Virus record (IMG/VR): IMGVR_UViG_3300033186_000013
Location: 1-64,000 of that record
Length of the DNA: 64,000 nucleotides
Reading direction: 5' to 3' (one strand)
Source of the DNA: a virus
Shown here: positions 1-38,200 of the stretch, in pieces
How the letters are laid out: each line of letters opens with the position of its first letter
Position numbering within the stretch: position 1 is the first letter of the stretch
Made by a program: the position numbers and the translations under genes
The notes under the pieces: generated by a model
Database searches by the model: none
The model's input: only the letters and a program-made list of their open reading frames with translations
What the model was told of the DNA's origin: nothing

Positions 1-366
1 AACAGTTTGGACGTTGAGAGCGCAAAAAAGGCACTCAACAAAGAGCAAGCCCGCAAAGACCGTCTATTTAAAGCAGAGGTTAAGCAATTCAAGGCGCACA
101 AAATTAACCGCCTTAAATACTCAACAAAGCAATACGACGTATTAAGAATGTCGAAAGATGGGACGTATATCGAAACGAATCAGGGTATAACGGTAAGTAC
201 CAAAGAGGCGAAAAGGTTGTTAAACCTCATCGACAACAAAAAGATAATAGGGGCTAAAGTAAATGACCAGTTCACCGTAACGGCTTTTAACGGCATATTT
301 CGCGCGGGTTGCCATAACATACCCGTAAATGAAATAAACGAAATACGCAAGGAATTACAGTCGTAA
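1..366 (+). CDS. hypothetical early protein (5' end probably outside window)
   Basis: Frame is open from base 1. Track ORF 7..366 begins at a TTG. No recognisable motif. Confidence 0.55.
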   Translation, partial: NSLDVESAKKALNKEQARKDRLFKAEVKQFKAHKINRLKYSTKQYDVLRMSKDGTYIETNQGITVSTKEAKRLLNLIDNKKIIGAKVNDQFTVTAFNGIFRAGCHNIPVNEINEIRKELQS

Positions 367-419
367 GGGCGACTTAAAAGAGACTGTTAAGCCCTTAGCG
401 TCCGCCCTAAATTGGGCGG
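365..419 (+). repeat. bipartite stem-loop intergenic element, copy 1
   Basis: Stem AAGGGC(365-370)/GCCCTT(391-396), then AGCGT(397-401), then GC hairpin CCGCCC(402-407)/GGGCGG(414-419). Followed by GTCAGTTAAA and the leader AAAAACAACATT before ATG 446. Confidence 0.6.
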
Positions 420-445
420 GGTCAGTTAAATTTAAAAACAACATT

Positions 446-691
446 ATGAACACAAATTTATCACTATGGTTTAAGCACCTGCCATTCGGGACGCTAAACA
501 AAATCTTCGGCATAGACCTAAATGTTATGCCTGATGACGAAGTACAGGAAACACTATCTAACTGCGGGACATTCTTTGACAGCCTGACAGTAGAAAAGCA
601 AAGGGAAATTTATACTAATTACGATTTTGCGACTGTGATGGCTAACGGAGTTAGCGAGCAGTTCGGGGGATGGGTAAATTCAATCGGATAA
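446..691 (+). CDS. hypothetical protein
   Basis: 81-aa ORF. A-rich leader is shared with starts 1681 and 2058. No domain recognised. Confidence 0.6.
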   Translation: MNTNLSLWFKHLPFGTLNKIFGIDLNVMPDDEVQETLSNCGTFFDSLTVEKQREIYTNYDFATVMANGVSEQFGGWVNSIG

Positions 692-703
692 AAACAGCGA
701 AAA

Positions 704-1060
704 ATGAGAGAATTCAACGTAAAGTCTTATCACACGGTATTCGTGGACGACTATAAAGAAGGTGAAGGCGAGCAAGTGAACTACTACCCACTTGACGCAA
801 CGATAACGGCAGAGACAGCGAAAGACGCGGTTATCGAATACTTTGCAGAGCATTTATACTATTCGTTCGACTATGGACGGGCAGAGTTGAGCGAATGCGG
901 GTGCTTTATTCAATGGGGTAATTTGGTTGACGCTGATAATTCAGAGGCGAGCGAATCACAGATTGAACGATGGAAAAAAGGCGAAGAAAAACTATACTCA
1001 AATCGTATTGAAGTATCCGCCCAACTAATGATGCCAGTTGATTTTAATGATTTACCATAA
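704..1060 (+). CDS. hypothetical acidic protein
   Basis: 118 aa, visibly D/E-rich. No domain recognised. Confidence 0.6.
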   Translation: MREFNVKSYHTVFVDDYKEGEGEQVNYYPLDATITAETAKDAVIEYFAEHLYYSFDYGRAELSECGCFIQWGNLVDADNSEASESQIERWKKGEEKLYSNRIEVSAQLMMPVDFNDLP

Positions 1061-1221
1061 TGAAAGGAACACACACTTTAGCAGAGTTGCGAGGCACAAA
1101 AGGATTTTTTATGCACAGCAACGGAACAGTAACGACGCGTTATGGTTCATCGACGGTAAACTATTGGCAGGAATGCGCCGACGGTAAGTATATAAATTAC
1201 GACTGTAAAACAATTTCGTAA
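1060..1221 (+). CDS. small hypothetical protein (53 aa, not in ORF track)
   Basis: ATG overlaps the upstream stop (TAATG). Translation starts MKGTHTLAELRGTKGFFMHSNGTVTTRYG and ends KTIS*. It fills the gap before element copy 2. Confidence 0.4.
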   Translation: MKGTHTLAELRGTKGFFMHSNGTVTTRYGSSTVNYWQECADGKYINYDCKTIS

Positions 1222-1226
1222 CTCGA

Positions 1227-1284
1227 CACGGCGAGTATAAACAGGCTTTTAAGCCGTGAGCGTGCGCCCCAAGCATTCGGGCGC
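1227..1284 (+). repeat. bipartite stem-loop intergenic element, copy 2
   Basis: Stem CACGGC(1227-1232)/GCCGTG(1253-1258) with GAGTATAAA in the loop, then AGCGT(1259-1263), then GC hairpin GCGCCC(1264-1269)/GGGCGC(1279-1284). Followed by GGTAAGTAAAAG. Confidence 0.6.
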
Positions 1285-1310
1285 GGTAAGTAAAAGTTCA
1301 TTGACAATTA

Positions 1311-1366
1311 GAGGGGAATTTTAACGGGTGATGCGTAGAACCCCTCGCGAATAAAGAAACCCGTTA
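1311..1366 (+). other. pseudoknot-capable RNA structure in the leader of ORF 1388
   Basis: GAGGGG(1311-1316)/CCCCTC(1341-1346) interleaves with TAACGGGT(1322-1329)/ACCCGTTA(1359-1366). An A-rich linker GCGAATAAAGAA lies between the two 3' arms. Confidence 0.35.
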
Positions 1367-1387
1367 GTAATTTAAAATTTCTTGGTG

Positions 1388-1603
1388 ATGAAAAACCTGA
1401 AATTTACCCACGTACTTAGCGTATGCCTGCTCGCGATAGTGATTTACCTATCGTACAAAGCGGGACGAAATAACTGCCCGTCAGTTATTGAGGTGCAAAG
1501 CGAAATTGCAGACCGCTATTTTAAGTACATCGGGAATCCTGAAACGCTGAAAGAGCAATGTACTTTCGAGTACGTTATCTACGGCGAATGCGACGAAGAT
1601 TAA
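1388..1603 (+). CDS. small membrane-anchored protein
   Basis: Track ORF 1382 starts at TTG. The ATG at 1388 gives MKNLKFTHVLSVCLLAIVIYLSY, one N-terminal hydrophobic helix. Confidence 0.55.
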   Translation: MKNLKFTHVLSVCLLAIVIYLSYKAGRNNCPSVIEVQSEIADRYFKYIGNPETLKEQCTFEYVIYGECDED

Positions 1604-1648
1604 TCGTCGTCAGGAATTAGGAAAGTCCCGCGTCCATCGTGGCGCGGG
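1591..1648 (+). repeat. bipartite stem-loop intergenic element, copy 3 (degenerate)
   Basis: Stem CGACGA(1591-1596)/TCGTCG(1604-1609) spans the stop codon. Next comes AGT, then GC hairpin CCCGCGTC(1627-1634)/GGCGCGGG(1641-1648) with one G-U pair. Leader AATAAAACACAT precedes ATG 1681. Confidence 0.45.
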
Positions 1649-1680
1649 CATTCTAAAGTAAATAATAAAACACATATACG

Positions 1681-1953
1681 ATGGCAAAATTAAATTTAAT
1701 CCAGTTATGCCCCGACGACGGGCAAAAATCAATGAGTAGTTTCTACGGCGTTACCAATATGACGCTCGAATATATAAGGGAATTGCAGAAACTAAACGGC
1801 GGTTTTGGAATCGACGTAATTAGAACAGATTTTGAAGGGGACGAAACCCCGAACGAAACGGTAATTGAATACCTAAATACCAACGTGTTTTCTGATAGCA
1901 AACTCAATCAGATATTCACGGAAGATGCCCTGTCATTGAGGCTTTTAAATTGA
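1681..1953 (+). CDS. hypothetical protein
   Basis: 90-aa ORF after element copy 3. No domain recognised. Confidence 0.6.
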   Translation: MAKLNLIQLCPDDGQKSMSSFYGVTNMTLEYIRELQKLNGGFGIDVIRTDFEGDETPNETVIEYLNTNVFSDSKLNQIFTEDALSLRLLN

Positions 1954-1980
1954 TGACGTTTTTATTTTTAACTAACTCGT

Positions 1981-2034
1981 CTGTGCGAGTATAAATAGTT
2001 CTTAGGCACAGAGCGTCCCGCCAGTTTCGGCGGG
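1981..2034 (+). repeat. bipartite stem-loop intergenic element, copy 4
   Basis: Stem CTGTGC(1981-1986)/GCACAG(2006-2011) with GAGTATAAA in the loop, then AGCGT(2012-2016), then GC hairpin CCCGCC(2017-2022)/GGCGGG(2029-2034). Followed by GGTGAAATAAAAACACAT before ATG 2058. Confidence 0.6.
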
Positions 2035-2057
2035 GGTGAAATAAAAACACATTCAAT

Positions 2058-2405
2058 ATGGAATTAATACAAAAATACGACACACGAATTAGGATACAAT
2101 TCGGTTCAACGTCTATCTCTTTTGGAGAAACAACGGTTGATGAAGTGTATCGAATTGCAAAAAAGGTGTTTGAAAATGTGAGAGTTGATAGAACAGTTCA
2201 CATTAAAGACCATCTTGTTACGGAGAAAGTCTCCAAAGAAGATAGGCTTTCATTTACAGTTTTAGTCAAAGAGATAGACTACTCAAAGCATAAGAATACA
2301 CAAGGGGCTGCATTAGGCTCAAAAAGTTTCATTCTTAATGCTATATCACAAGAATACGCATTGGAGTTATTTAAAAATAATTACCAAAAATATATCAATA
2401 ATTAA
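2058..2405 (+). CDS. hypothetical protein
   Basis: 115-aa ORF. No domain recognised. Confidence 0.6.
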   Translation: MELIQKYDTRIRIQFGSTSISFGETTVDEVYRIAKKVFENVRVDRTVHIKDHLVTEKVSKEDRLSFTVLVKEIDYSKHKNTQGAALGSKSFILNAISQEYALELFKNNYQKYINN

Positions 2406-2416
2406 AAACAGAAACG

Positions 2417-2578
2417 ATGGCAAAACAAATGAAAACGTACCAAATTGACATAGACTTTTACTCTATGGAATTCAGAGTGCGCGCCAAGACAAAGGCGGAA
2501 GCCCGTAAAAAGGCAAAGAGTATGGTCGCTCGCAAAGCGCGCGGACACATCAATCATTTATACATTGATGAGGTATGA
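2417..2578 (+). CDS. small basic protein (53 aa, not in ORF track)
   Basis: Translation starts MAKQMKTYQIDIDFYSMEFRVRAKTKAEARKKAKSMVARKARGH. Its stop overlaps the next ATG (ATGA at 2575). Confidence 0.45.
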   Translation: MAKQMKTYQIDIDFYSMEFRVRAKTKAEARKKAKSMVARKARGHINHLYIDEV

Positions 2579-2871
2579 GTAGAGCAAGTAAATTAGTCGG
2601 TAAGACAATGACACATCCTGACTTTGGCAAGGTCGAAGTTACAGGGGTAAAAAATGGTAGCCGTACCATTGTAGAAATTCAAGTGGTACAGCGTGCTAAA
2701 GGATGGGACGAAGCAAGTCAAACTTACAAGCCAGTAAAATCATTCGTGCCGAATAGAGATATTAACGGCAAGGAAATAGGCAAAACGTTTCGTCAAAAAA
2801 CGTACAGCGATAGGCATAGTGGCTATGGCGATACGGATGAGGTACATTTTAACACACTTTCAGAAATATGA
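2575..2871 (+). CDS. hypothetical protein
   Basis: Member of the ATGA-overlapping gene chain. No motif recognised. Confidence 0.6.
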   Translation: MSRASKLVGKTMTHPDFGKVEVTGVKNGSRTIVEIQVVQRAKGWDEASQTYKPVKSFVPNRDINGKEIGKTFRQKTYSDRHSGYGDTDEVHFNTLSEI

Positions 2872-3182
2872 TACACTTAATTATCACATCAAAAAAGAAT
2901 GAGCGCGTATGCTTCGCCACTAATTACGGCGAGGCATTCGACTTCATCGTGAAGAACCACGATGCGAAGGTTAGAACCATTGACTACACCGCAAAGACAA
3001 AGGTGTACGAAAAGAGAAAGTTTCTCACGGAATTCTACAAGTCAACAAATGATAAGACAAAGTTTTTTCAGTTGGCGGAACTGTGGATTAAAGGAACTAC
3101 TAATCTTAACGAGTACCTTATTTTGATGGGTGTTCGTGAGGATTATAAAACGTACAAGCAAAACCAAAATCGCACAGTATGA
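2868..3182 (+). CDS. hypothetical protein
   Basis: ATGA-coupled chain. No motif recognised. Confidence 0.6.
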   Translation: MIHLIITSKKNERVCFATNYGEAFDFIVKNHDAKVRTIDYTAKTKVYEKRKFLTEFYKSTNDKTKFFQLAELWIKGTTNLNEYLILMGVREDYKTYKQNQNRTV

Positions 3183-3688
3183 ACGAAGCATTATCCAAAG
3201 GACTTACCAAACAGGAAGCGCAAAGGGCTTATGATTTGACCAACCTACTTATGACCTTTGATGGTCAGGGTTTTGTTGGTAAAACCACATACAACAGAGA
3301 CTTCAATGTGCATTGGACGGAACTCATAACTTTTTCAGTTGAAAAATGGGATGAATTAATCAAAGGGCTTCGCAAAGTTTTGAACGAAAGACTGCCTGAC
3401 CGCCCATCAATACAGCACGGATTCATTACTCAAAAATGGGTCGTTGATGAAGATGCTTTTTCAATTTACGACGCGTTATCAACCGATACTATTTGCCAGT
3501 TTTTTGACGACGAGTGCGACGGTGATGCGACGTTCTTTAAGAACAGACACGAAATTGCAAAAGCAATAGCAGTAGTGCCACAACTTGTGCAACTTGCAGA
3601 AATGTATTTTGACACACTAAAATCAAAAGGTGCTTACGACAGCGTGCCATTCAATTTAGCATTAGAAACACTTAAAAGTTTAGAATGA
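3179..3688 (+). CDS. hypothetical protein
   Basis: ATGA-coupled chain. No motif recognised. Confidence 0.6.
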   Translation: MNEALSKGLTKQEAQRAYDLTNLLMTFDGQGFVGKTTYNRDFNVHWTELITFSVEKWDELIKGLRKVLNERLPDRPSIQHGFITQKWVVDEDAFSIYDALSTDTICQFFDDECDGDATFFKNRHEIAKAIAVVPQLVQLAEMYFDTLKSKGAYDSVPFNLALETLKSLE

Positions 3689-4026
3689 AATTAGAACGAA
3701 CAAAACAATGTAAAACTTGTCCCTTCAAAAAAGGGAATGACCCTTTTGATATTCCAAATTACGACGAGGAATTACACGAAGGGTTGAAGTCAACTATTGC
3801 AACTGATTTAAGTTTCGGAGACAGTTTGAAAATTATGGCTTGCCATTATTCTAAAATTGGAAACGAAACACCTTGCGTCGGATGGTTGGTTAACCAACTT
3901 GGGGCAGGAAACAACATAGGGCTTAGATTAAAGATGATGTCCTGTGAAAATGCTGATGAAATAGAAGTGTTCGGAGAACAGCACGAAAAATTTGAAGATA
4001 CATTACCAAAAAACAGAAACAAATGA
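3685..4026 (+). CDS. Cys-rich putative zinc-binding protein (paralogue of 8743..9108)
   Basis: The motif set CKTCPFKK, ACH and PCVGWL is shared with ORF 8743. It is reminiscent of DUF6283-type proteins, recalled from memory and unverified. Confidence 0.5.
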   Translation: MKLERTKQCKTCPFKKGNDPFDIPNYDEELHEGLKSTIATDLSFGDSLKIMACHYSKIGNETPCVGWLVNQLGAGNNIGLRLKMMSCENADEIEVFGEQHEKFEDTLPKNRNK

Positions 4027-4685
4027 TAGTTAAAATTAAAAACGAATTAACAGTAAACGGCGCGGGAAACCTAACCGTAGGAAGCACTCACGAAGTAGTT
4101 GCTTGTCCTAAAGAATATGAGAACAGATATAAGCATTGTATTTGGGTGATGGGCGAAACAGAGCCTATCAGATTACACCAAAGGGAATTTGAGATTATTG
4201 ACAGTAAAGACCCGACCCATCCTGCATACGCAATAGATGTTATTGAAATTGATATGGATGCTATGGGTAAGGCTTTGTCAGAGCAGTTACAGGAAAACCC
4301 ACAGTTTGCAGGAACTAATTACGAAATGCGTACAAGCCTTGCTATCATCAAGGGCGTATCCATCGCCACAGATGATGAAGCCTGCTACTTTGTAGATATT
4401 CATAAAGGGATGGACTTAGACTTCTACAAAGAGCGCACACAGAATTTCGATGAAGAAGGGAATTCTACTGGATACAGTATTGCAATGTTCCCATCAGGCG
4501 GAGTTACACTTACGCTGCCTGACATTCTTAAATTCAAAAAGAGAGACACCAATCTTGCTGAATTTATGGGTAGCAGATTCGGGTATAACCCTCGAATCAT
4601 AACGAACACACTTCACTTGATGAAGCACATAGAGGAACAAAAAGAACTTGATTCTCGCAGAGTAAAATTTGAATCTAAAAAGTAG
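4023..4685 (+). CDS. hypothetical protein
   Basis: 220-aa ORF in the coupled chain. No motif recognised. Confidence 0.6.
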   Translation: MIVKIKNELTVNGAGNLTVGSTHEVVACPKEYENRYKHCIWVMGETEPIRLHQREFEIIDSKDPTHPAYAIDVIEIDMDAMGKALSEQLQENPQFAGTNYEMRTSLAIIKGVSIATDDEACYFVDIHKGMDLDFYKERTQNFDEEGNSTGYSIAMFPSGGVTLTLPDILKFKKRDTNLAEFMGSRFGYNPRIITNTLHLMKHIEEQKELDSRRVKFESKK

Positions 4686-4688
4686 GAT

Positions 4689-5621
4689 ATGGACTTATTT
4701 AAAGGACACAATCCTTTTAGAAAGAGAACTGCTCAACAGGCTATGCCAACCGAAGCGGACATATCTATATTAAAAGAGATTGCAAAACTCACAGAAAAAA
4801 GAATCGAAACTGCCAGTCGATTGGCAGAAGATTATCAAGATGATTTTGACCGTATTACTGCTGATATAAATGAGATTTTAGAATACAACAGCACCTTAGA
4901 GGATGTTGGCAAAAACGATTTTCGTTTGGTCAATATTCCTCAAACTATTTTGGACGCGTATAATAAGGCAAAAGAGGCTTTAGGGATTGTTGGCGCAGGA
5001 AGCAAAACTACATACAGAAAAGAGCGTTTAAGAGAGATTCTAAAGAACGGTTTTGTTCCTAATGTAGATGCAGAATATATGTGTCATTACCCCGAAGATT
5101 TTGACAGGAAACTTGATAAAAAGGGCAACTGGATTATGATACTTGGAGACTATGCCATAGAGAATGCGCCCGACAAGTATAGTTTCCATTTTGCTACGCC
5201 AAAATCAAGACCTCATCATTTAGGAGACATGAAGGGTAGTAAGGCTTACCGCCTTTGGTACGCAAGTATAATTTGCAATAACCGAGAGGTGCTTATGAAT
5301 CCTTACGAGTATATTGTTGTGAGAGACATTGATACCATTCTTGATTCCGTAGATAATGGTATCAAAATGATTGAAGGAACTGCGTCAGCAAGGCTTGACA
5401 AAACCAAAGTGTTTTATCTAAAATCTCGTGGATTTTCACAGGCAGAAGTTTACAGAATACTTTTCAAGTCCGTTAAGACTAAGGGTGTTTGTCATTTTCA
5501 AGCCGAACCCGAACTATGCGAAATGTATGACTTGATACAGGAAGGATACCGCCCGACAATGGCACAGAAAATTGTCGAGCATTACAAAAATCTACCAACA
5601 GTTAAATTCAAAGCAGTATGA
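4689..5621 (+). CDS. SufB/SufD-like protein (only the C-terminal region is recognisable)
   Basis: The C-terminal segment EGTASARLDKTKVFYLKSRGFSQAEVYRILFKSV matches the conserved SufB/SufD C-terminal block (G-R-I/L-D then F-Y-L-R/K-S-R-G-I/F). The gene is ATGA-coupled to the SufC-like gene. The N-terminal ~200 aa are unrecognised. Confidence 0.6.
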   Translation: MDLFKGHNPFRKRTAQQAMPTEADISILKEIAKLTEKRIETASRLAEDYQDDFDRITADINEILEYNSTLEDVGKNDFRLVNIPQTILDAYNKAKEALGIVGAGSKTTYRKERLREILKNGFVPNVDAEYMCHYPEDFDRKLDKKGNWIMILGDYAIENAPDKYSFHFATPKSRPHHLGDMKGSKAYRLWYASIICNNREVLMNPYEYIVVRDIDTILDSVDNGIKMIEGTASARLDKTKVFYLKSRGFSQAEVYRILFKSVKTKGVCHFQAEPELCEMYDLIQEGYRPTMAQKIVEHYKNLPTVKFKAV

Positions 5622-6346
5622 TTAAGATAACAGGGCTTGAATGCCAAATAAAAAAGACGCAGATACTAAAAGGTATCGACTTGACAGCAAAGAAGGGCGA
5701 GATTCACGCTATTATGGGTAAAAACGGGTGCGGTAAATCAACTTTACTGCATACCTTGATGGGAAACCCTATCTATAAGGTGAATAACGGAAGTGTTGCT
5801 CTTAATTCTAACGACATAACAAGGGCAGAGGCAGACGATAGGTCTAAACTCGGTATGTTTATGTCTTTTCAGACACCCTACGAGTTTTTAGAGACAACCA
5901 CGTTAGAGATACTTACCCGTATGTGGGCGAAGGCTACTGGCAAGGACGCTAAAGCAAGCGATTTTGTTAACGCCAACAAAAAGGTTTTGGAAGAACTTAT
6001 GATAACAGATGAAATGCTAAACAGGGACTTCAATGTTGGGTTTAGCGGTGGTGAAAGAAAGCGTTTAGAGGTGCTTCAAATGCTCATCCTTAAACCATCT
6101 ATTTTGTTACTGGATGAAGTCGATACAGGTCTTGATATTGACAGCATAATACTCATAGGGAATGCCTTAAAGGATTATCAAAAAAAGAACAAGGCAACGG
6201 TACTCATCGTTACTCACCTATCTACCTTCCTAAAATACTTAGTGCCAAATAAGGTACACGTAATTCGTGATGGTGTGATAGTAAAAACTGGAAGCAAGAA
6301 ACTTGCCGAGCAGATTGTAGAAAAAGGATATTCATTTATAAAATAG
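5618..6346 (+). CDS. sufC: SufC-like Fe-S cluster assembly ABC ATPase
   Basis: Walker A GKNGCGKST, Q-loop MSFQTPYEF, signature FSGGERKRLEVLQMLILKP, Walker B LLLLDEVDTGLDIDSI, and H-loop region IVTHLSTFLKYLVPNKVHVIRDGVIVKTG. All closely follow the SufC pattern. There is no transmembrane domain. Confidence 0.85.
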   Translation: MIKITGLECQIKKTQILKGIDLTAKKGEIHAIMGKNGCGKSTLLHTLMGNPIYKVNNGSVALNSNDITRAEADDRSKLGMFMSFQTPYEFLETTTLEILTRMWAKATGKDAKASDFVNANKKVLEELMITDEMLNRDFNVGFSGGERKRLEVLQMLILKPSILLLDEVDTGLDIDSIILIGNALKDYQKKNKATVLIVTHLSTFLKYLVPNKVHVIRDGVIVKTGSKKLAEQIVEKGYSFIK

Positions 6347-6350
6347 AAAT

Positions 6351-6539
6351 ATGGAAACACCAAACAACACCGTAAGTAGAAAGCAGGAACGCAAACTATT
6401 TGTTTCAATAATAGTCCTGCTAATTGTTACCTATTATTACGCAGTATTCAGCCTTCAATCAGAGGCTAACGACCTTCGTAAAGAGTTAGACTCTTGCAAA
6501 GAAACACCTGTGCATTATGTTCAAACTGATAGCCAATAA
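6351..6539 (+). CDS. small membrane protein
   Basis: Single hydrophobic helix LFVSIIVLLIVTYYYAVF. Confidence 0.55.
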   Translation: METPNNTVSRKQERKLFVSIIVLLIVTYYYAVFSLQSEANDLRKELDSCKETPVHYVQTDSQ

Positions 6540-6756
6540 CCAACACATAGTCAAGTCGTATGATATTTATGACCTGTGGCGTTTCATTATGTCTAACAAA
6601 TTTGACTATGTGTTCCTGAACGGGTACGAAATTGTACCCGATACGGTATTCTTAAAAATATTCCTTGCGGAATCCCGTAACTATCAGGATTATTTAAGAT
6701 TAGAAAGGAAATTAAATACACCAATTACAATTTACGATTATGCAAAAAATTATTAA
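6517..6756 (+). CDS. hypothetical protein
   Basis: 79-aa ORF that overlaps its neighbours slightly. No motif recognised. Confidence 0.5.
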   Translation: MFKLIANNQHIVKSYDIYDLWRFIMSNKFDYVFLNGYEIVPDTVFLKIFLAESRNYQDYLRLERKLNTPITIYDYAKNY

Positions 6757-7045
6757 ACAGGCTTGGAAAACCAAAGACGGAAAAGTTCTTATGCCTAAAG
6801 ATTTTGGGGACACTCATCTTTTGAACACGATAAAGTTCATAGAAAATAAATGTGTCGCTCACCACGAAGAAGAATTGAACGCTTGTATGTCAGTATCTTT
6901 TCAAGGAGAAATGGCGCAGATGCACCAAGACCAATTTATTACACACAGCAAGCCCTCTGATTATTACCCACCGATTTACTATGACTTAATTGACGAGGCT
7001 GTTTCGAGAAACTTAATACCAAACGAAGATGCCAAAGACAACTAA
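6740..7045 (+). CDS. hypothetical protein
   Basis: 101-aa ORF. No motif recognised. Confidence 0.55.
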   Translation: MQKIIKQAWKTKDGKVLMPKDFGDTHLLNTIKFIENKCVAHHEEELNACMSVSFQGEMAQMHQDQFITHSKPSDYYPPIYYDLIDEAVSRNLIPNEDAKDN

Positions 7046-7448
7046 ATTCAAACAAGTTTTTGACTTGGCTAAAGAGCGAATCGCAGAACATAATTTAACC
7101 ATTGATGAACTGCATCGTAATACGGAGATACCCATTGAACTTTTAAGAATCATTCTTGATGATTCCACGAATGTAATAAATGACCTATCTCGCCTGTTTG
7201 AGTTTTTAAACATCCGAGTTTCAGCCCTTCCAAAATCTTTTAGACCATACATTATAACGGACGATGAGCAGCAGTTAAAAATTACACGCGTGATAGAACC
7301 AAGATGCTCAATGTACTACGATAAAATGGACGGAAAATGTTACAGTTTTTCGTATAAGAAAAAGAGATTGAAGCACGAGCCATCAGAAACAAAGGTTATT
7401 CAAAGTGAAATGAAAGCCTTGATTAACAAGCACTTGAACAGTATTTAA
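7029..7448 (+). CDS. putative DNA-binding protein (N-terminal HTH-like)
   Basis: The N-terminus FDLAKERIAEHNLTIDELHRNTEIPIELLRIILDD has an XRE-like helix-turn-helix pattern. This is a weak call. Confidence 0.35.
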   Translation: MPKTTKFKQVFDLAKERIAEHNLTIDELHRNTEIPIELLRIILDDSTNVINDLSRLFEFLNIRVSALPKSFRPYIITDDEQQLKITRVIEPRCSMYYDKMDGKCYSFSYKKKRLKHEPSETKVIQSEMKALINKHLNSI

Positions 7449-7465
7449 AGAATTGTTAATAACTT

Positions 7466-7510
7466 TTACAATGGTTACGGTAATTAATTACAGCGTTTAT
7501 TGTAATTTAG
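7466..7510 (+). promoter_or_regulatory. operator-like nested palindrome plus near-consensus -7 box
   Basis: TTACAAT(7466-7472) and ATTGTAA(7499-7505) flank the perfect 12-bp palindrome GTAATTAATTAC (7480-7491). TAATTTAG (7503-7510) is one mismatch from the Bacteroidota -7 motif TAnnTTTG. The region lies in the 99-bp gap before ORF 7548. Confidence 0.4.
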
Positions 7511-7547
7511 CAACTCGATTTTCAATTTTAATTAAATTATAGACCCA

Positions 7548-7790
7548 ATGTCAGAGAAAACAGAAACGGAACTATCGCTCAAAGAAAGAGTTAAGGTTTG
7601 CCGAGACAAACTGAAAGAACTCGGCGTGCGTAATGCTCGGTACTACTTTGCGAAGAAGTATCCTGAATACGCAAAGGATGACAAAGCCAAAACGAGGCTT
7701 GACAATTTGTTCTTCTGCAAGATTTCAGATGAACAATTCACGAAGGATTTAGAGGCTTTCACCTCTTATAAAGAAGTAGAATTTAAGTAA
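7548..7790 (+). CDS. hypothetical protein
   Basis: 80-aa ORF, first gene after the gap. No motif recognised. Confidence 0.6.
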   Translation: MSEKTETELSLKERVKVCRDKLKELGVRNARYYFAKKYPEYAKDDKAKTRLDNLFFCKISDEQFTKDLEAFTSYKEVEFK

Positions 7791-7796
7791 ACTATT

Positions 7797-8606
7797 ATGG
7801 CTCAAAAGAAAGACATATTAAAGGAACTATCCGCCCCGCTCGACATATCAGATGTTGATTTTAGAATACAATCCATCAGCGAAAAAGGGTACGCTACAAT
7901 ACTCGCGTATAAAGATGCGCGTGTTGATATGAATAGGCTTGATGAAGTCTGTGGAGTTCATTGGCAAGACAAGTACGAACTCATCGACGGTCAACTTTTT
8001 TGCTCTATCGGAATAAAGGAAGGCGACGAATGGATTTGGAGAATGGACGTTGGTACAGAAAGCCAAACTGAAAAAGAAAAAGGTCGTGCCTCTGACGCGT
8101 TTAAGCGTGCGGGTTTCCGTTGGGGAATCGGCAGAGAGTTGTATGATTACCCGCGTATATTTCTGCAACTAAAAGGCACTAATGATATTTCAGGAAATGA
8201 AAAGCCTGAATTTACAGTAAAAGAGGTTCAAACCCAACGAGGTAAAAAGAAAATCGGCACTTCGGGTTGGGGTCTTAGACTTGATAAGTGGGAATGGACT
8301 GTGGCTTTTGGTGATGATGGTAAGGTGATGAGGCTTATAGGTAAAGACCAACACGGCGCAGTTAGGTTTGATTCAGATAAAGAATTCAATGGACTTCCTA
8401 AAGGAAACCAACAGCCCGCGACACCGCCCGCAAACCCACCTCAACCTGCGCAGAAAAAGAAGCCTAAACTAACTAAGGCTAAATACGAAAAAGCAATGCA
8501 GTCAACAGATGTTGAGGCGTTGACAAAAGCGTTGACTGCTTTTGAATTAACCCAAGACCAATTAGGAAACCTAACATTGAGAATTGAGGAACTAAAACAA
8601 GGGTAA
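7797..8606 (+). CDS. Rad52/Sak-type single-strand annealing protein
   Basis: KGRASDAFKRAGFRWGIGRELYDYP matches the Rad52/Rad22 family core (K-G-x-x-S-D-A-x-K-R then G-I-G-R-x-L-Y). The C-terminal tail is P/Q-rich. Confidence 0.75.
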   Translation: MAQKKDILKELSAPLDISDVDFRIQSISEKGYATILAYKDARVDMNRLDEVCGVHWQDKYELIDGQLFCSIGIKEGDEWIWRMDVGTESQTEKEKGRASDAFKRAGFRWGIGRELYDYPRIFLQLKGTNDISGNEKPEFTVKEVQTQRGKKKIGTSGWGLRLDKWEWTVAFGDDGKVMRLIGKDQHGAVRFDSDKEFNGLPKGNQQPATPPANPPQPAQKKKPKLTKAKYEKAMQSTDVEALTKALTAFELTQDQLGNLTLRIEELKQG

Positions 8607-27169: not shown

Positions 27170-27996
27170 TGGCAACAGGAGAGACTTTAACAGACCAACA
27201 ATATTACGAGAACCCCGAACTTTGGGGAGAGGCACAGTATATAACACTAAAAAACGTTATAGACAACATAATTATTACGGCAGATGACGACAGTTACTTC
27301 AAGCACGTAAAGTATTTCAGAGCATCCATTCACGGGAAAATGGGTATCAAGAAATTAAATGTTGACCTCAAAGCAGAGAACAAGGCTATAAGTATTGAGT
27401 TGGGCGCAAATCGAACTTTCCCGTTCCCTAAGTATATGACTAATTGGAGTAGGGTTTCTGTTCTAAATAAGTGCGGAAAACTTGTTCCGTTAAACACAAA
27501 CGCAAGCCCGTTGATTAGAGATTATTTGCAAGATAATGATGCAGAGTTACTGTATGATTGCTGCGGAACAGTCCTTGAAGGTCATCCGTTTAATGCAGAG
27601 CAAGGAGATTGCTGTTATCAATTTGAATGCCCTGATGTTCATTGCGGATGTGAAGAAGAAAACTTTGACGACAGTTGGGTTAAGGAAGATAAGAAGGGCG
27701 GATACTTTGTGTTTAGCGACGACTTAGTTGATAGGCTTATCGTAATAGAATTCCAGTCAGCAGGATTAGATTCTTTAGATGACTGTGATATTAAGATAAA
27801 CCACAACCTTGAACACACAATAACCACTTATATAAAGTGGAAACTTGTTGAAGGCAAAAGGAACGTTCCGATGAATGAAGTTTTATACTGGAAGAACGAG
27901 TATAAGATAAATAAGAAAAGAAGTAAAAATTTACTCTCGGATAAAATAACATTAGACCAAATTATGAGGTCTGTATCCCTTAGATATAATGGCTAA
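27169..27996 (+). CDS. virion structural protein candidate (tail adaptor/tubular-A position)
   Basis: 275 aa. The call rests only on its position before the 1330-aa protein. Confidence 0.3.
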   Translation: MATGETLTDQQYYENPELWGEAQYITLKNVIDNIIITADDDSYFKHVKYFRASIHGKMGIKKLNVDLKAENKAISIELGANRTFPFPKYMTNWSRVSVLNKCGKLVPLNTNASPLIRDYLQDNDAELLYDCCGTVLEGHPFNAEQGDCCYQFECPDVHCGCEEENFDDSWVKEDKKGGYFVFSDDLVDRLIVIEFQSAGLDSLDDCDIKINHNLEHTITTYIKWKLVEGKRNVPMNEVLYWKNEYKINKKRSKNLLSDKITLDQIMRSVSLRYNG

Positions 27997-30900
27997 AATT
28001 AGAAACATTTTTGTTCGCGGTGTAATGGATAAAGACACCGATAGAGCCTTTATTAAGCAAGGCATACATAGAGACGCTTGGAATTTAAGATTTCATACCA
28101 ACGGTGGAGACGACGGTGTTGGCAATAATATCAAAGGAACTTTTGAAATTAGTGATGCCACAGAAGGGAGAACCGATTTAAAGTGTGTAACGGCTTTTCA
28201 TAATGAGGACTTAGATGTTATTTATTATTATCTCGCAAGCACCGCAGGTCAGTTCAGTAAGATTGTCGAATATGACATAAACAATGACACGACCACAGAC
28301 ATACTTCACGACACGTTAGGAATTCTAAACCTTGATAAAGACGGATATATTACTGGAATCAACGAGATTGATGGTCTTTTGTTTTGGTCAGAATGGGGCA
28401 GAAATCCAAGAAGGATAAATGTGGAACGGGCAAAAACCTACGGAACTAATGGGTTTTCAGAAGATGATATTACTGTTATTGTAAAACCGCCGTTCCAAAA
28501 ACTAAGGCTTACTCTCGAAAATACAGATACAGAGACGCAGCAAGAAAACAATATTGAGGAAAAGTTTTTATACTTCTCATACCGATACCGTTATTTAGAT
28601 GGTGAATATAGTGTATTAGCCCCATTTACAAAGGCAGCATTTAAGCCACGAAATTTCCAGTATGATTTTGTTGAGCAGTCAAACCGAAGTATGGTTAACA
28701 GATTCAATCAAGTATTAATTGAATTCAATACAGGAAACGAAAGAGTAACTGAAATACAACTCGTATTCACCGAGAGCGAAAGCAATGCTGTTTGGATTAT
28801 TGATGATTTTGTAAAAGCCAAACTTGGTTACGGTGATAATGAGATTCAGAGTTTCCCGTTTTTCAACAATAAAGTTCAGCGTGCTTTAAGTAGCAACGTT
28901 CTTCCTAATATGTTCGATAATGTTCCTTTAACAGCAAAGGCGCAAACCATTATCGACGGAAGGCTTATATACGCTCACTACAAAGAAAACTACAACATCA
29001 TTGATTGCGATGAGAACCCTATTGAGATTGATTATACTGTTGAACTTGATGCGCAACCAAATACCGTTCAAGAATCTCAAACGGTGTATGATGAAAACAA
29101 CAACGTTATAGGTACAGAACTCGTAGATGTTCCAAGTTTAGAGCCTTTGGAATCCTGTAAGAGCAACCGAGATTATGAAGTTGGAATTGTTTATGGGGAC
29201 GATTTCGGTAGAATCACAACTATATTAAACAGTAAAACTAATACGAGGTATATTCCTAATGAAAATAGTGTTACTGCGAACAGTCTTGATATTGTTCTAA
29301 AGCATAGACCGCCTTGTTGGGCGACATATTATCGTTTCTTTGTCAAGCAATCCAAAAAAGGATATGACCAACTTTTGCCTACATTGTTTTATGAAGATGG
29401 GGTTTTCCGTTGGGTTAAACTTGAAGGAGCGGACAGGGATAAAGTAAAGGAAGGCGACTACCTAATTGTCAAATCTGATACACAAGCACCGATAGAGCCT
29501 TTGATAAAGGTAAAGGTTCTTGAAGTTGTAGAGCAAGAGAAAAACTTTTTACAGCCTGACGATGTTGTTGATTCAATAGAAGAAAGAGCGGGCTTGTATT
29601 TCAAAATAAAGCCCGAAGGATTCCGAATTGACTTAGATGATTACGACAACTTCTTACTAAACACTTATGACACTTCTGCAAATAGACACGATAATCCTGT
29701 TTCGGGTCTTACGCAATACATTAGTGAGGCTCATTATTACGGCGACACATTGAATGATTTAACCACAGGCGGAACATATACTGGCTCGTCGGGAGAACGT
29801 TTAAGATTCCTCATTAAAATAGACGGTCTTGCCACAGGTGGCGACCCTGATACTTTTAGATGGAGTATTGATGATGGTGCTAACTGGAATCAAACTGACA
29901 TTGATATTGTTGCAGGAACGCCAGTTACTTTAATGGACGGTGTGCAAATAACTTTTGCTAACGACAACGGACATTCATTACTTGACGAGTGGAATGTAAA
30001 TGCAACTGCGCCTTTTGGCACATCGGCAAATTCAAAAGCATACGCATTCTTTCGCGTGTTCGGTCAGAACGGAGAAATACTTACCGACCCTGATGACGAG
30101 AAGATATTTGCAGGGGCAAGAATTAGATTGGTTTATGATGAATATAACGAAGGTAATACTCAATGGGAAGTAGATGTTATCGCTAATGGAAATTACGACA
30201 ACATTCAGGAGTGGTTTTACAAAGAGGATATTTTTTCCGAAATATCTCCTGCGATGACCATTGATAGAATTCGTTTTGTTCGTGGTGTCTTATATCCTGA
30301 TGGAAGTGCAAATCGAATACAACAAGATTTGACAGAAGGAATTATGACTATGGTTGTTCAGTCGAATGCGACACAGAATAACGACCTTGACGGAAGGGTT
30401 AAGGTTCGTTCTTCGTCCGAGATATTGCAGGCTGACAACAATAACAGAATTGTTTTTGAGACAGAACCAACAGACCAACCGCCTGATATTTACTTTGAGG
30501 TAGGTAAAAATTACAGAATCATAAATGGATTCCACAGCCATATAACAAATAACTTTGAGACAGAAATACCGAATACTACTGGCGACCAATCCCAAACAGC
30601 AACGCAAGACCTTCGTGTAAAGTTAGATTGGTTCAACTGTTTCAGTTATGGGAATGCCGTAGAGAGTTATAAAATAAGGGACGAGTTTAATGCCAAAGGT
30701 CTTGATGTAGGTGTTAGACCATTGAGCAACATACGAGAAGAATATAAAGAAGTTACCCGTGTTGCTGACATAACGTGGAGCGACCTTTATAATGATGACA
30801 CCGATTTCAATGGACTGAATACTTTTAATCTTTCGTTGCTGAACTTCATAAAACTTGACAAGGAAGAAGGTAGTATCCAAAAAATATTCAATGACGGAAA

Positions 30901-31981
30901 CAGGAACATCCTTGTTCTTCAAGAAGATGCGATAGGTATAATGCCATACAATAAGCAAATCATTAATGACGTAGAAGGTGGCAGAATAGTTGGTATAGCC
31001 ACAAATGTACTCAATAGAAATAGTTATCGTGAGTATGCTCGTGGCAAGCACGGAATATCAAAGAACCCTGAAAGTTTCATATCAATAGGCAGTCGAAGAT
31101 ATTTTACTGACCAACAAAGAGGTGATTTAATAAGACTGGCTAATGATGGAATTACAACCATAAATCAAAATCTATTAGAACACGAGTTTTCCAATTTGAT
31201 GTCGGCAAATAAACTGAACAAAATGGTTGGCGGGTATGACCCGAAACACGGTGAGTATATGCTTCATTTACCATCAGAAGAAGGTACGCTTACGTTTAAA
31301 GAAATAGCAAAGGGATTCCCTAATTATTTCTCGTTCCAACCTGACTTTATGCTTGGGGCTAACAATGAGTTCTATGCTTGGAAAGATGGTGTTATGTATC
31401 GAATGAATGCTACGGAAAACCGTAATGAGTTTTTCGGAGAACAATTTGACAGCAAAATAGTATTCTTTGTAAATGATTCTTTTAGCGAGGAAAAGGTTTT
31501 TAATGCTATGGGTATTGAAGGCTCTCACGCTTGGGATGTGTTTATTGAGACAAGGCTAACTTCAAGGGATATTCCAAAAGAATGTTTCACTAAACTTGAA
31601 GATTTCTTTTACTCTGAAATAATGGGTAACACTAACGGAGTTACAACTGCAAGTAGTATTTTTGGTTTAGGGGAATACGCCATTACTGGCGGAGAAATAT
31701 TCTATGATGTTCTTCCTGAATCCCTATGTGTAGGTGATTTTATAAGGAGTGCTAATCTTCTTTTTACACCAATAGAAATAACAAACATTCTTCCCGACAG
31801 GATTGTACTTGCTACGCCGTTTACCGCCGTATCATCATTCCTTATGTACGAGAAGAATCAGAATATTGATGGCAGCGACATAAGAGGCGATGTAATGCGC
31901 GTAGAAATGGTCAACAATGACACAGAAAAAATAGACCTTCGTGCTGTTAGATTTGAAGTTCAAAAATCCAATTACTCATAA
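27989..31981 (+). CDS. large virion structural protein (tail nozzle/tubular-B-like by position)
   Basis: 1330-aa uninterrupted ORF in the late module. No catalytic motif seen. The functional label is positional only. Confidence 0.35.
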   Translation: MAKIRNIFVRGVMDKDTDRAFIKQGIHRDAWNLRFHTNGGDDGVGNNIKGTFEISDATEGRTDLKCVTAFHNEDLDVIYYYLASTAGQFSKIVEYDINNDTTTDILHDTLGILNLDKDGYITGINEIDGLLFWSEWGRNPRRINVERAKTYGTNGFSEDDITVIVKPPFQKLRLTLENTDTETQQENNIEEKFLYFSYRYRYLDGEYSVLAPFTKAAFKPRNFQYDFVEQSNRSMVNRFNQVLIEFNTGNERVTEIQLVFTESESNAVWIIDDFVKAKLGYGDNEIQSFPFFNNKVQRALSSNVLPNMFDNVPLTAKAQTIIDGRLIYAHYKENYNIIDCDENPIEIDYTVELDAQPNTVQESQTVYDENNNVIGTELVDVPSLEPLESCKSNRDYEVGIVYGDDFGRITTILNSKTNTRYIPNENSVTANSLDIVLKHRPPCWATYYRFFVKQSKKGYDQLLPTLFYEDGVFRWVKLEGADRDKVKEGDYLIVKSDTQAPIEPLIKVKVLEVVEQEKNFLQPDDVVDSIEERAGLYFKIKPEGFRIDLDDYDNFLLNTYDTSANRHDNPVSGLTQYISEAHYYGDTLNDLTTGGTYTGSSGERLRFLIKIDGLATGGDPDTFRWSIDDGANWNQTDIDIVAGTPVTLMDGVQITFANDNGHSLLDEWNVNATAPFGTSANSKAYAFFRVFGQNGEILTDPDDEKIFAGARIRLVYDEYNEGNTQWEVDVIANGNYDNIQEWFYKEDIFSEISPAMTIDRIRFVRGVLYPDGSANRIQQDLTEGIMTMVVQSNATQNNDLDGRVKVRSSSEILQADNNNRIVFETEPTDQPPDIYFEVGKNYRIINGFHSHITNNFETEIPNTTGDQSQTATQDLRVKLDWFNCFSYGNAVESYKIRDEFNAKGLDVGVRPLSNIREEYKEVTRVADITWSDLYNDDTDFNGLNTFNLSLLNFIKLDKEEGSIQKIFNDGNRNILVLQEDAIGIMPYNKQIINDVEGGRIVGIATNVLNRNSYREYARGKHGISKNPESFISIGSRRYFTDQQRGDLIRLANDGITTINQNLLEHEFSNLMSANKLNKMVGGYDPKHGEYMLHLPSEEGTLTFKEIAKGFPNYFSFQPDFMLGANNEFYAWKDGVMYRMNATENRNEFFGEQFDSKIVFFVNDSFSEEKVFNAMGIEGSHAWDVFIETRLTSRDIPKECFTKLEDFFYSEIMGNTNGVTTASSIFGLGEYAITGGEIFYDVLPESLCVGDFIRSANLLFTPIEITNILPDRIVLATPFTAVSSFLMYEKNQNIDGSDIRGDVMRVEMVNNDTEKIDLRAVRFEVQKSNYS

Positions 31982-35214: not shown

Positions 35215-38200
35215 ATGAACGAAGAATATTTATTAGGGGTATATAATGAGTTCGGCGGACAAGATTCTTTAAAGACCGACTTTAAAACTTGGGTGTCTCG
35301 CATTCAGAATAATAACGAGTACAAGAAAGGTATATTTACCCATTTCGGCGGTCAGTCAAAATTGAACACTTCTTTTGACGAATGGAATAGCCGTGTGTTC
35401 GGAGTAAAAAAAAAAGTCAGTCCCCAACAGGATACTACTTCAACTTCAAACGTTGGAGAATTGGATACGTCAACTACGGAAGTTGGTGGGTCTTTGGAAT
35501 CACAAACAGATAATTCTTTTAGGTCATTAATAAATGAGCCTAAAGTTCCTTTGGATTTTGAACCAAGAGCGTTTTTCCCGAAACCAACATTTGACAACAT
35601 AAACGGTGTTAAGCCCTTTATAGAAAACCCTGATTTTGATTTCGAGCAATTATCACAGCAAGGCGGTACAGAGATAAGTCCTTTTGGTTTCAATCAAGCA
35701 TTCATAAGAAATCCTGATTTTAATGAGACTATTCAGGACGGAACACAAATAGTATTAAATTCAAAGTTCGACAGAGACAAGCCTGTATCGGAAGAAAACC
35801 CTGAATTTTTACAGGTGCGTATCCCGCAACCCGAAGATAAGTTTTTCAGAGCAACAGATGATGAGTTGAAAAAACTTGAAGAATTCGAGAACCTTCAACA
35901 ATTATCACAGGAAGAATTGTCTGAAATTGACAATCAAATCAAAGAAGAAGAATCGGGAGATTTTGGGTTCTTTGGGAACATCAAAAACGCCATAGTATCA
36001 ACCCCAACTTTCGGAACTACATTTAACCCATTTTTCTCTCCGCAGAATCTTAGCAAAGTTTCTAAGCGCGAAGATTTAATTGCAGCAAAAATAAAAGAGA
36101 AAAGGGTAGATTTTTTATCAGATTTGGACGATGACGAAAAAGATAAAATCCAATCATTTGTTCGTACCAAAAATTTCTTGGCAGACCAAAACCGTCAGAA
36201 ATTAGAACGTGAGATAAATACTTTGGATGAGGGTCTTATCCAAACAAGAGATAGTGTCGCAACAATAGATAATCGTTTCAATGAGATTGAAACTGAAAAA
36301 CAAAAACTTCAAGACCAAGCAACTCGTGGTGGGGACGTTAATCAGTTGAGAACATCGTTTGATAACTTGATTAGTGAGCAAGGCAAACTAATTGAGCAGA
36401 GAAACGAAATCATTACTAATGCTGAACCCGCATTAAACGAGCGAATCAACAAACTAAATCAACTTGAAAACAGCGTTACCAATATCGGTACGATGGAACA
36501 AGAACTTGATTTACTTAAAAGAAACTATGGTTTTCTTGATAATGTTGTTACACGCGTGGGAATAGGGTATGCTAATTTGGCTGCAAATTTTGTGTTCCAG
36601 TTCGAGAGGTCAGAACTAAACAACAAACGTCAACGTCTTAAATTCATATTATCAAATGGACTTCAAGACGATGAGCGATATAAAGACTTTGTTCCGCCTG
36701 TTTACCGAATAGAAGGCAACGAATATAATGAGGAAGAATTCGACAAAGAGACAGAGGAACTTCAAAAAAGACTTCTTAATAGTACAATCGTAGGCAAAGA
36801 GATACTTGACAGACAACGAGAAAACATTAGACCAAGCATTTCTGTTTCGGATATAAACAGTTTTGGTGATGTTGTTGATTTTACAGTAGATGGTCTTTCA
36901 GATAATGTCGCCACAGTTCATCAGTTGGCTATACCTTATGTTGGTCAGACTTCATTTGTAATCGGTCAACAAGCCGATGCGGAGATAAACATTCGTCGCA
37001 AAGAAAAGGCAAACCGAGAAGAACTTGCATCTATAAAAACCCAACTTCAACAGGAAGGGATTTCAGATGAAGATAGAGCCACCCTTGAAAAAAGAAAAGA
37101 GTTTTTAGAAAAGAAAGAGCCTTTGTCTGATGGAAAAGTGTTCTTAGCATCTACTGGAATGGCTTTGTCCGAGTTGGCATTCAGCAGGCTTTTTGGTGAG
37201 GTTAAAAGAATCAATGTCGGAAAACGGGTTTTAAAGGACGCTACCACTCAACAACTTTCAGGACAGGTAAGACGCTCTGTAAAAGATAGGTTCAAAGACG
37301 TATTGAAGGGCGGTGGTGAAGTATTGAAAGATGCTGCCGAAGAAGGATTTTTAGATGAATTCCTTACAAACACAACACAGAACGCTATCAATAAGTTTTA
37401 CTTGGGAGATTCCGAAGTGGGTTTATTTGATAATTCATTGGATGCAATAGGTGGCGGGTTCTCCGTTGGTGGTGTTTTGTCTGCTGCTCCAAGAACTGCG
37501 GGTGCATTTTTGAGCCACATATCAAATAAGAATAAAAGGAATCAAGTTTTTAGCAATGTCAAGGAAATAACAGAACTTCAAAGATACCTTGATGAAACAC
37601 CTGATTTAGAACAGAGTGCCATAGACATCACTCAATCTAAAATTCAGAAATTGCTCAATGACAATAACCAAATTATTGGGGAAACAGTTGATAATTTCGA
37701 CAACCTTGATGATGATTCTAAAAAGAGATTACTCGAAGTATCTAATGAAATCGTTTCTTTAGATATTACATTGGATAAGTTGAACAGAAAAAACAATCTT
37801 ACCGACGCGGAGAAAACACTAAAGACAGAGGTTGAAGGAAGGCTGAATACTTTAAATTCTGAACAAGACATCATTATAAACCAAAGAGTTCAACTTGAAG
37901 TTGATGGCAATAGTTTCTTGACCAATAAAGAAGATTTCCAAAAGTTTATTCAGGATGATGCAAATGTACAGTCTATAATTGACGGAAGCACAAATGTTGA
38001 GATAGTGAACAACCAAGAACTTGCTGATGCGCTCGACACGCGCATAAAGGAAGTTACTGACGGCGTAACACGAGACAGTAAGGATAATTCATTTAATCCA
38101 TTAGAAAGTGAAGGAGAAGCCATAGGAAGGCTTGTTGAGAACATAGATGATACGACTTCTTTAGAGGATGTTGCCAAAGCGCATACAGACAGTTATGTAA

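Follow-up and report, generated by a model that had tools for sequence, protein, structure and literature searches.

The left end of a viral DNA stretch of 64,000 nucleotides (nt; positions 1 to 64,000 of IMG/VR record IMGVR_UViG_3300033186_000013, hereafter the window) carries three elements, at 359-426, 1221-1291, and 1975-2041, which we read as self-cleaving pistol ribozymes. They are encoded in sense orientation in the gene block at the far left of a podophage of marine Flavobacteriia, a relative of the Pachyviridae, and they would cut the polycistronic RNA transcribed from that end of the genome. We put the probability of this reading at about 85%. The whole window was scanned against Rfam (4227 families, curated thresholds), and exactly three matches were obtained, all to the Pistol family (RF02679, gathering score 34.5), all on the plus strand, and all full length in the cmscan alignment (model positions 1-68 of 68). 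Their scores lie 22 to 37 bits over the curated threshold (Table 1). Permissive searches (E value of 10 or less) of 1.8 kilobases (kb), 3 kb, and the whole window returned no extra pistol and no other ribozyme family. Judged by these matches, the elements are new, unannotated instances of a known RNA class in an uncultured marine flavobacterial phage. Since the apparent new element belongs to a known ribozyme class, no new family is to be claimed.

An earlier reading of this DNA, made from the letters and the open reading frames (ORFs) without database searches (the sequence-only reading), had described four bipartite stem-loop elements that punctuate the first genes. The sequence features that it listed are present in the DNA, and its copies 1, 2, and 4 are the three pistols. 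The string AGCGT followed by six G or C occurs three times in 64 kb (at 397, 1259, and 2012) where 0.2 occurrences are expected, and a count of three was reached in none of 100 dinucleotide shuffles; these three copies form a genuine family far above chance. The family of four holds for them and not for copy 3, and the genome total is five. The remark that nothing similar occurs elsewhere in the 64 kb agrees with the window-wide search, which adds no pistol; two more lie upstream, in the source contig from which the window was taken (L122, 75.7 kb; window position 1 is contig position 2143).

The pistol class is defined by three stems (P1, P2, and P3), a pseudoknot, high conservation at ten nucleotides, and cleavage at a junction, usually GU, whose length is strictly 2 nt (PMC4604425). 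Mutagenesis and crystal structures place its active site at purine-32, the G33-C41 pair, G40, and G42, in env25 numbering (PMC6154101). All five genomic copies contain UUA(A/G)GC and GCGU, which cover purine-32, G33, G40, C41, and G42, and all five have a GU junction of exactly 2 nt. According to the cmscan alignment, every copy has a P1 of 4 base pairs (bp), with the sequences ACUC/GAGU or AGUC/GACU, and a pseudoknot of 6 bp. P2 is ACUG/CAGU in the pistol at 359-426 and GCUU/AAGU, with one G.U pair, in that at 1221-1291. P3 has seven pairs in each window copy (six G-C and one closing U.G wobble), and the P3 loops measure 6-9 nt. Every defining feature of a pistol ribozyme that can be checked in silico is thus present, and catalysis itself is predicted.

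The helices are also supported by covariation. Four variable positions of the pseudoknot differ in all five genomic copies (UCGG, CGUA, AAGG, CACG, and CUGU), and each is fully compensated on the partner strand. To these we added pistols from other phages, giving a MAFFT alignment of 40 non-redundant sequences including the five of this genome, on which only P1 and the pseudoknot were counted because the variable P3 is left-justified there. P1 and the pseudoknot together are 99.8% paired, and the pseudoknot alone is 100% paired. Four of its six pairs covary, with an observed score reached in none of 500 shuffles, and pairing falls to 24-44% when the partner strand is slid by 1-3 columns. The preserved pairing that the sequence-only reading had taken for covariation is therefore borne out, both within the genome and across the 40 phage pistols. 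The retention of the active-site nucleotides, the 2-nt junction, and compensated pseudoknots in sequences that otherwise diverge is the signature of selection on the fold.

The two-stem anatomy proposed earlier proved to be a misparse, in which P1 and P2 were overlooked. Its variable 6-bp stem (AAGGGC/GCCCTT, CACGGC/GCCGTG, CTGTGC/GCACAG) is the six-pair pseudoknot formed by the P1 loop with the P2-P3 junction, and its 20-nt loop consists of the P1 3' strand, a conserved AUAAA linker, the P2 5' strand, and UUARGC. The catalytic G lies in AGCGU, and P3 corresponds to the GC hairpin. The GGT behind this hairpin comprises the last P3 pair and the G/U cleavage junction, and the start of the supposed tail is the P2 3' strand. 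The true elements are consequently longer than first drawn, by 6 nt at the 5' side (the P1 5' strand) and by 7 nt at the 3' side (GU and the P2 3' strand). Minimum free energy folding cannot draw pseudoknots, which explains why the pseudoknot helix was taken for a plain stem.

Table 1 Pistol ribozymes of the phage, their helices and predicted cleavage sites, and the hairpin element outside the family. Positions refer to the window unless marked as contig (L122) positions
Feature	Position	Strand	Basis
Pistol ribozyme, genome copy 1 of 5, after the first phage gene	contig 834-901 (1242-1309 nt upstream of window position 1)		62.4 bits, full length
Pistol ribozyme, genome copy 2 of 5, after the second phage gene	contig 1587-1651 (492-556 nt upstream of window position 1)		60.9 bits, full length
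Pistol ribozyme, genome copy 3 of 5 (copy 1 of the sequence-only reading)	359-426	+	56.5 bits, E 1.3e-7
Helices of pistol 359-426	P1 359-362/371-374; pseudoknot 365-370/391-396; P2 383-386/423-426; P3 401-407/414-420	+	cmscan alignment
Predicted cleavage site G421/U422	421-422	+	model positions 63-64, 2-nt GU junction from P3 to P2; cmscan; site per PMC4604425
Pistol ribozyme, genome copy 4 of 5 (copy 2 of the sequence-only reading)	1221-1291	+	61.8 bits, E 7.8e-9
Helices of pistol 1221-1291	P1 1221-1224/1233-1236; pseudoknot 1227-1232/1253-1258; P2 1245-1248/1288-1291; P3 1263-1269/1279-1285	+	cmscan alignment
Predicted cleavage site G1286/U1287	1286-1287	+	cmscan alignment
Pistol ribozyme, genome copy 5 of 5 (copy 4 of the sequence-only reading)	1975-2041	+	71.5 bits, E 4.7e-11
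Helices of pistol 1975-2041	P1 1975-1978/1987-1990; pseudoknot 1981-1986/2006-2011; P2 1998-2001/2038-2041; P3 2016-2022/2029-2035	+	cmscan alignment
Predicted cleavage site G2036/U2037	2036-2037	+	cmscan alignment
Hairpin element outside the family (copy 3 of the sequence-only reading)	1590-1654	+	no Rfam match at E<=10; fold z-score -2.9

The genes around the pistols form a string of small ORFs, all on the plus strand, and the pistols lie on the coding strand in the gaps between these co-directional left-end ORFs, as the description of elements punctuating the first genes had it. The five copies (56.5-71.5 bits) are confined to the first 4.2 kb of the contig, where they follow 442 nt of non-coding terminal sequence; those of the window correspond to contig positions 2501-2568, 3363-3433, and 4117-4183, and no pistol core was found at contig positions 52411-74036. 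The predicted cuts (contig 896/897, 1646/1647, 2563/2564, 3428/3429, and 4178/4179) delimit units of 750, 917, 865, and 750 nt. Four of the five, including two of the three in the window, fall 21-26 nt ahead of the next ATG. The predicted 3' product of the cut at 421/422 begins UCAGUUAAAUUUAAAAACAACAUU-AUG (ATG at 446, leader of 24 nt), and that of the cut at 2036/2037 begins UGAAAUAAAAACACAUUCAAU-AUG (ATG at 2058, leader of 21 nt). At the other edge, the upstream stop codon lies within the first 12 nt of the ribozyme in two of the five copies (window 364-366 and contig 1595-1597); the TAA at 364-366 falls in the P1 loop and pseudoknot strand of its pistol. In a third copy, the last base of the stop at 1219-1221, which ends an ORF of 53 amino acids (aa) at 1060-1221, is the first nucleotide of the pistol, and the two remaining copies have upstream stops 7 and 21 nt ahead of them.

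We propose that the transcript folds into P1, the 6-bp pseudoknot, P2, and P3, and that the 2'-OH of the junction G would then attack its own 3' phosphate, cutting at the three sites predicted in the window. The upstream fragment would retain the whole compact ribozyme at its 3' end together with a 2',3'-cyclic phosphate, and the downstream fragment would start with a 5'-OH and, in most copies (four of five), have only an A-rich leader of 21-26 nt before its ATG. Together, the five ribozymes would divide a polycistronic transcript, over its first ~4.2 kb, into pieces of ~750-920 nt, each with one to three genes. Such cleavage could uncouple the stability and translation of neighbouring cistrons, replace a terminator with a protected, structured 3' end, and provide a short unobstructed leader for initiation independent of a Shine-Dalgarno sequence. 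The processing of polycistronic transcripts has been put forward as a role, still unproven, of bacterial self-cleaving ribozymes (PMC6765202, section 13). The context of the present array matters for this question, with five copies in 4.2 kb at the genome end that probably enters the cell first.

The assignment of the phage is based on its large terminase, which is 49% identical to TerL of Gundel_1, a Tenacibaculum phage of the Pachyviridae. Gundel_1 is a podovirus, its direct terminal repeats are short, and its gene order is collinear with the window. Gundel_1 (NC_062747) has a single pistol (2564-2642, 65.6 bits), which separates gp005 from gp006 among the small genes of the same left-end block, and its predicted cut at 2637/2638 falls 24 nt ahead of the gp006 ATG. 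The DNA of window positions 1-8000 had no match among GenBank phages, and no close relatives were found in IMG/VR via the proteins encoded at 4689-5621 and 2058-2405, so that the comparison of orthologous copies is confined to Gundel_1. This phage, which is grown on Tenacibaculum sp. AHE14PA, offers a tractable system for the processing of early operons by phage ribozymes.

To see how pistols are placed in other viruses, a degenerate core pattern was searched in IMG/VR, where at least 119 contigs matched; the positional figures given here refer to 89 non-redundant pistols with a clear P3, a GU or AU junction, and P2 among the matches listed. The ribozyme starts within -20 to +19 nt of the stop of a co-directional upstream ORF in 68 of 86 cases. 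It overlaps that stop in 26 of the 86, and 33 more begin no further than 9 nt from it. An ORF start lies 20-49 nt past the cut in 39 of 89, and 33% have one 10-39 nt downstream, compared with 14% for random positions in the same loci. The spacing from cut to start is ~36-41 nt where AGGAG-type boxes are present and ~20-28 nt in A-rich leaders without them. Taken together, these positional regularities provide a concrete, testable rule. Arrays recur in the Rfam matches as well, with six pistols in 4 kb in contig L093, five in L103, and four each in L023 and L083. With one copy as the blastn query, the pistol core was located in cultured phages of Bacillus, Gordonia, and Cellulosimicrobium and in Gundel_1 (the evidence for the first three being that of blastn), for example at KF669647 155754-155799, KR063281 60036-60079, and MW590223 31654-31704; the cores found in this way are unannotated or lie beneath coding sequence calls of "hypothetical protein".

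Pistols near phage genes, and clusters of bacterial self-cleaving ribozymes, are already on record (PMC4604425, PMC6765202). We suggest tentatively, and with more doubt than confidence, that phages in general may use arrays of pistols as a device to cut their operons at set positions, the 5' edge of the ribozyme abutting the upstream stop and the cut lying barely beyond the stretch that the ribosome binds at the next gene. The distance from cut to ATG would be about 21-28 nt where the leader lacks a Shine-Dalgarno sequence (Bacteroidetes type) and about 36-41 nt where it has one. If so, the upstream mRNA would receive a ribozyme-capped 3' end with a 2',3'-cyclic phosphate in lieu of a terminator, and the downstream mRNA would receive a short leader with a 5'-OH, which would be open to initiation and would escape 5'-end-dependent decay. 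Here the device would shape the transcripts that are made first once the phage DNA has entered.

Several points weigh against the reading of these elements as pistols that cut an early operon. The phage is known solely as an uncultured metagenomic contig, and cleavage is predicted from its sequence; family membership, the helices and active-site nucleotides, the strand, and the placement among the ORFs were established computationally, and from them we infer that the RNA is cut in vivo, that the early transcript is polycistronic, and that stability and translation are affected. The terms "early" and "polycistronic" rest on the position at the genome end and on analogy with the terminal repeats of Gundel_1. 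No biological role of pistol ribozymes has been established in any system (reviewed in PMC6765202), and for this reason the functional part of the reading is offered as a hypothesis. The cut at 1286/1287 would leave a leader of ~100 nt before the ATG (1388) of a 72-aa ORF, so the short-leader rule is not universal. Two copies also depart from the ideal core: P2 of the pistol at 1975-2041 (GUUC/GAAA) has three Watson-Crick pairs and one G.A, and the base before GCGU, an A elsewhere, is a C in the copy at contig 1587-1651.

The best supported of the alternatives, itself unlikely, is that the pistols are conditional and act as a translation-coupled switch. With the upstream stop codon in or near P1 and the pseudoknot strand, a terminating ribosome would unfold the ribozyme, and cleavage would be restricted to transcripts that are not being read or that have yet to meet their first ribosome. 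The stop codons found within the first 12 nt of two genomic copies and the one-base overlap in a third are consistent with this idea, as are the 26 of 86 pistols that overlap the upstream stop and the 33 that start within 9 nt of it among the viral-contig matches listed. However, equally tight packing is expected from plain genome economy. Further, pistol cleavage is fast, at ~10 per min in physiological Mg2+ (PMC4604425), and could be complete during transcription, ahead of any ribosome arriving at the stop.

It is much less probable still that the elements are inactive relics or neutral passengers, at most stable 3' structures with no processing role. Plain hairpins do fill such gaps as well (the element at 1590-1654 is one), and the weakened P2 of one copy and the A-to-C change beside the catalytic G in another also speak for it. 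Nevertheless, all five divergent copies have kept the active-site nucleotides, the 2-nt junction, and compensated pseudoknots, and the window copies score well above the curated threshold, by the 22-37 bits given above; the preserved core and the compensated pseudoknots make inactive relics unlikely.

Hairpin promoters like those of the phage N4 virion RNA polymerase, terminators independent of a U-tract, and RNase III-type hairpins as in T7 would all agree with GC-rich hairpins without U-tracts in intergenic gaps beside a genome end (and the first also with a 2453-aa protein without assigned function encoded by the phage), but we give them almost no weight, as the conserved nucleotides are those of the pseudoknot and the unpaired core, which is where the pistol model has them, and not those of the hairpin, and the same element occurs in the Bacillus, Gordonia, and Cellulosimicrobium phages and in at least 119 unrelated viral contigs. 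Promoters of the N4 virion RNA polymerase have a stem of 5-7 bp, a 3-nt loop, and conserved flanks. The P3 loops here are 6-9 nt and conservation lies outside the hairpin, which does not fit that definition. Terminators independent of a U-tract also find no support. The conserved single-stranded segments form the catalytic core and are neither promoter nor tail motifs. Canonical intrinsic terminators were rightly discounted by the sequence-only reading: behind each hairpin come GGU, the P2 strand, and the A-rich leader, and a terminator scan found no plus-strand terminator-like sites at the pistol gaps, such sites not being enriched overall. There is nothing like the long interrupted duplexes of RNase III sites. 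CRISPR repeats are identical direct repeats with regular, similar-sized spacers; the copies here are 750-860 nt apart with genes between them and differ in their hairpin sequences, and the earlier idea of decoy or CRISPR-like RNAs has no support. The functionally closest of the four roles suggested at the outset is RNA processing between early genes, with the difference that the RNA would be its own nuclease and not an RNase site. No such site is needed, since the elements match a self-cleaving model in full and lack none of its helices or active-site nucleotides.

The pistol class reportedly goes back to work by Weinberg and by Harris in 2015, with env25, Alistipes putredinis, and Lysinibacillus sphaericus as its representatives. 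Compared with known pistols, the elements described here have the same P1, the same 6-bp pseudoknot joining the P1 loop to the P2-P3 junction, the same P2, and likewise a variable P3, the same AUAAA, UUARGC, and AGCGU segments, the same 2-nt G-U junction, and the same association with phage genes, without structural difference. They occur here as five copies within 4.2 kb at the left end of one phage genome. Clusters of hammerhead, twister, and other self-cleaving ribozymes beside phage genes, known from genomes of bacteria and phages, likewise place several ribozymes in short gaps between co-directional genes, whereas the array here is of a single class, no other ribozyme family having been found in the window. 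The RNase III sites of the T7 early genes have the same expected outcome, a long early transcript converted to discrete mRNAs with structured 3' ends. However, those sites are substrates of a host protein nuclease that leaves 5'-phosphate and 3'-OH ends, and the self-cleavage predicted here would leave a 5'-OH and a 2',3'-cyclic phosphate; neither the sequences nor the structures are alike. The theta ribozymes, hepatitis delta virus (HDV)-like RNAs located by the tRNA genes of gut phages (PMC10879173), are also small, self-cleaving, and set in position relative to a downstream gene, but they belong to a different class, and the downstream genes in the window are protein-coding.

Contig L103 of IMG/VR presents a related arrangement at 4195-8159, where six tRNA genes have five pistols interspersed among them. 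In two cases the pistol ends 8-10 nt before a tRNA gene (6126-6201, followed by a tRNA at 6211, and 7804-7882, followed by a tRNA at 7890), recalling the HDV-like theta ribozymes beside phage tRNAs (PMC10879173).

The remaining hairpin element, copy 3 of the sequence-only reading (1591-1648), had been regarded as a degenerate member of the family, which the searches contradict. It had no match to RF02679 at an E value of 10 or less in the 1.8-kb, 3-kb, or 64-kb search. Its Smith-Waterman similarity to six pistols is within the shuffle range (18-248 of 500 shuffles were as good), and AUAAA, UUARGC, and AGCGU, which were looked for, are absent. A degenerate pistol is thereby rejected on model and alignment scores. 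The element consists of a 7-bp hairpin (1590-1596/1604-1610), with a stop codon (1601-1603) within its span, and an 8-bp GC hairpin (1627-1634/1641-1648) closed by GGAA/UUCU. It resembles the 3' half of a pistol in its UUAGG, the UCCCGC start of its hairpin, and its 4-bp closing helix. It might serve as a hairpin that stabilises a 3' end or, conceivably, be what heavy decay has left of a pistol.

The leader AAAAACA, which had been noted as shared behind several copies, exists but is not part of the element. Among 70 plus-strand ORF starts in the window, T occupies position -15 in 51% and A occupies positions -14 to -11 in 56-67%, and a Shine-Dalgarno signal is absent. AAAAACA itself precedes six of the 70, including genes distant from any pistol at 4023, 17132, and 20284, and the gene that opens the genome, which no ribozyme precedes, carries this leader too. 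The shared leader is thus explained by a box of T and then AAAA at -15 to -11 that is found window-wide, a genome-wide A-rich translation-initiation box. An A-rich initiation region lacking a Shine-Dalgarno sequence is typical of Bacteroidetes. Within the first 8 kb, neither promoters of the sigma-70 type nor intrinsic terminators were enriched over shuffles. The Bacteroidetes -7 box TAnnTTTG was not enriched either, with a single plus-strand match in 13 kb.

The 100-nt leader after the second window pistol contains, at 1311-1366 on the plus strand, the interleaved perfect stems GAGGGG/CCCCTC and TAACGGG/CCCGTTA. An H-type pseudoknot was considered here and dropped, since 6% of shuffles, and 2.7% of tiles taken from the window, contained one just as good. 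In the contig, the 3' flanks of the first two pistols (887-928 and 1637-1677) are nearly identical, reading GGUAGUUAAAAA(A)UAAAAAC..AUGAAA, despite different pseudoknots and P3 stems. This suggests that the P2 3' strand, the leader, and the start codon were duplicated or conserved as one module. The non-coding left terminus (contig 1-442) has GTTAACGAGTGTTG-type direct repeats at 74-104 and 186-216, which might be signals for packaging, replication, or promoter activity.

Two plus-strand ORFs next to the pistols, at 1060-1221 (53 aa) and 1388-1603 (72 aa, with a hydrophobic N-terminus), are uncalled in the public record. The former begins at a TAATG overlap with the preceding stop. Since its own stop abuts a pistol, the usual pistol context, it is supported as a real gene, and ribozyme position can in this way lend support to small ORFs that gene callers miss.

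Further along the plus strand, the 2453-aa ORF (35215-42576) lies directly before the terminase gene and is syntenic with gp074 of Gundel_1, a "structural protein" of 2482 aa. It had no sequence match in Pfam, PHROG, or PDB, and that it encodes a giant ejected protein or a virion polymerase is only a guess. A virion protein of 1330 aa (27989-31981, plus strand) has a C-terminal domain of the crAss-type muzzle family (PF25729), which links this Pachyviridae-like phage to crAss-like tail architecture.

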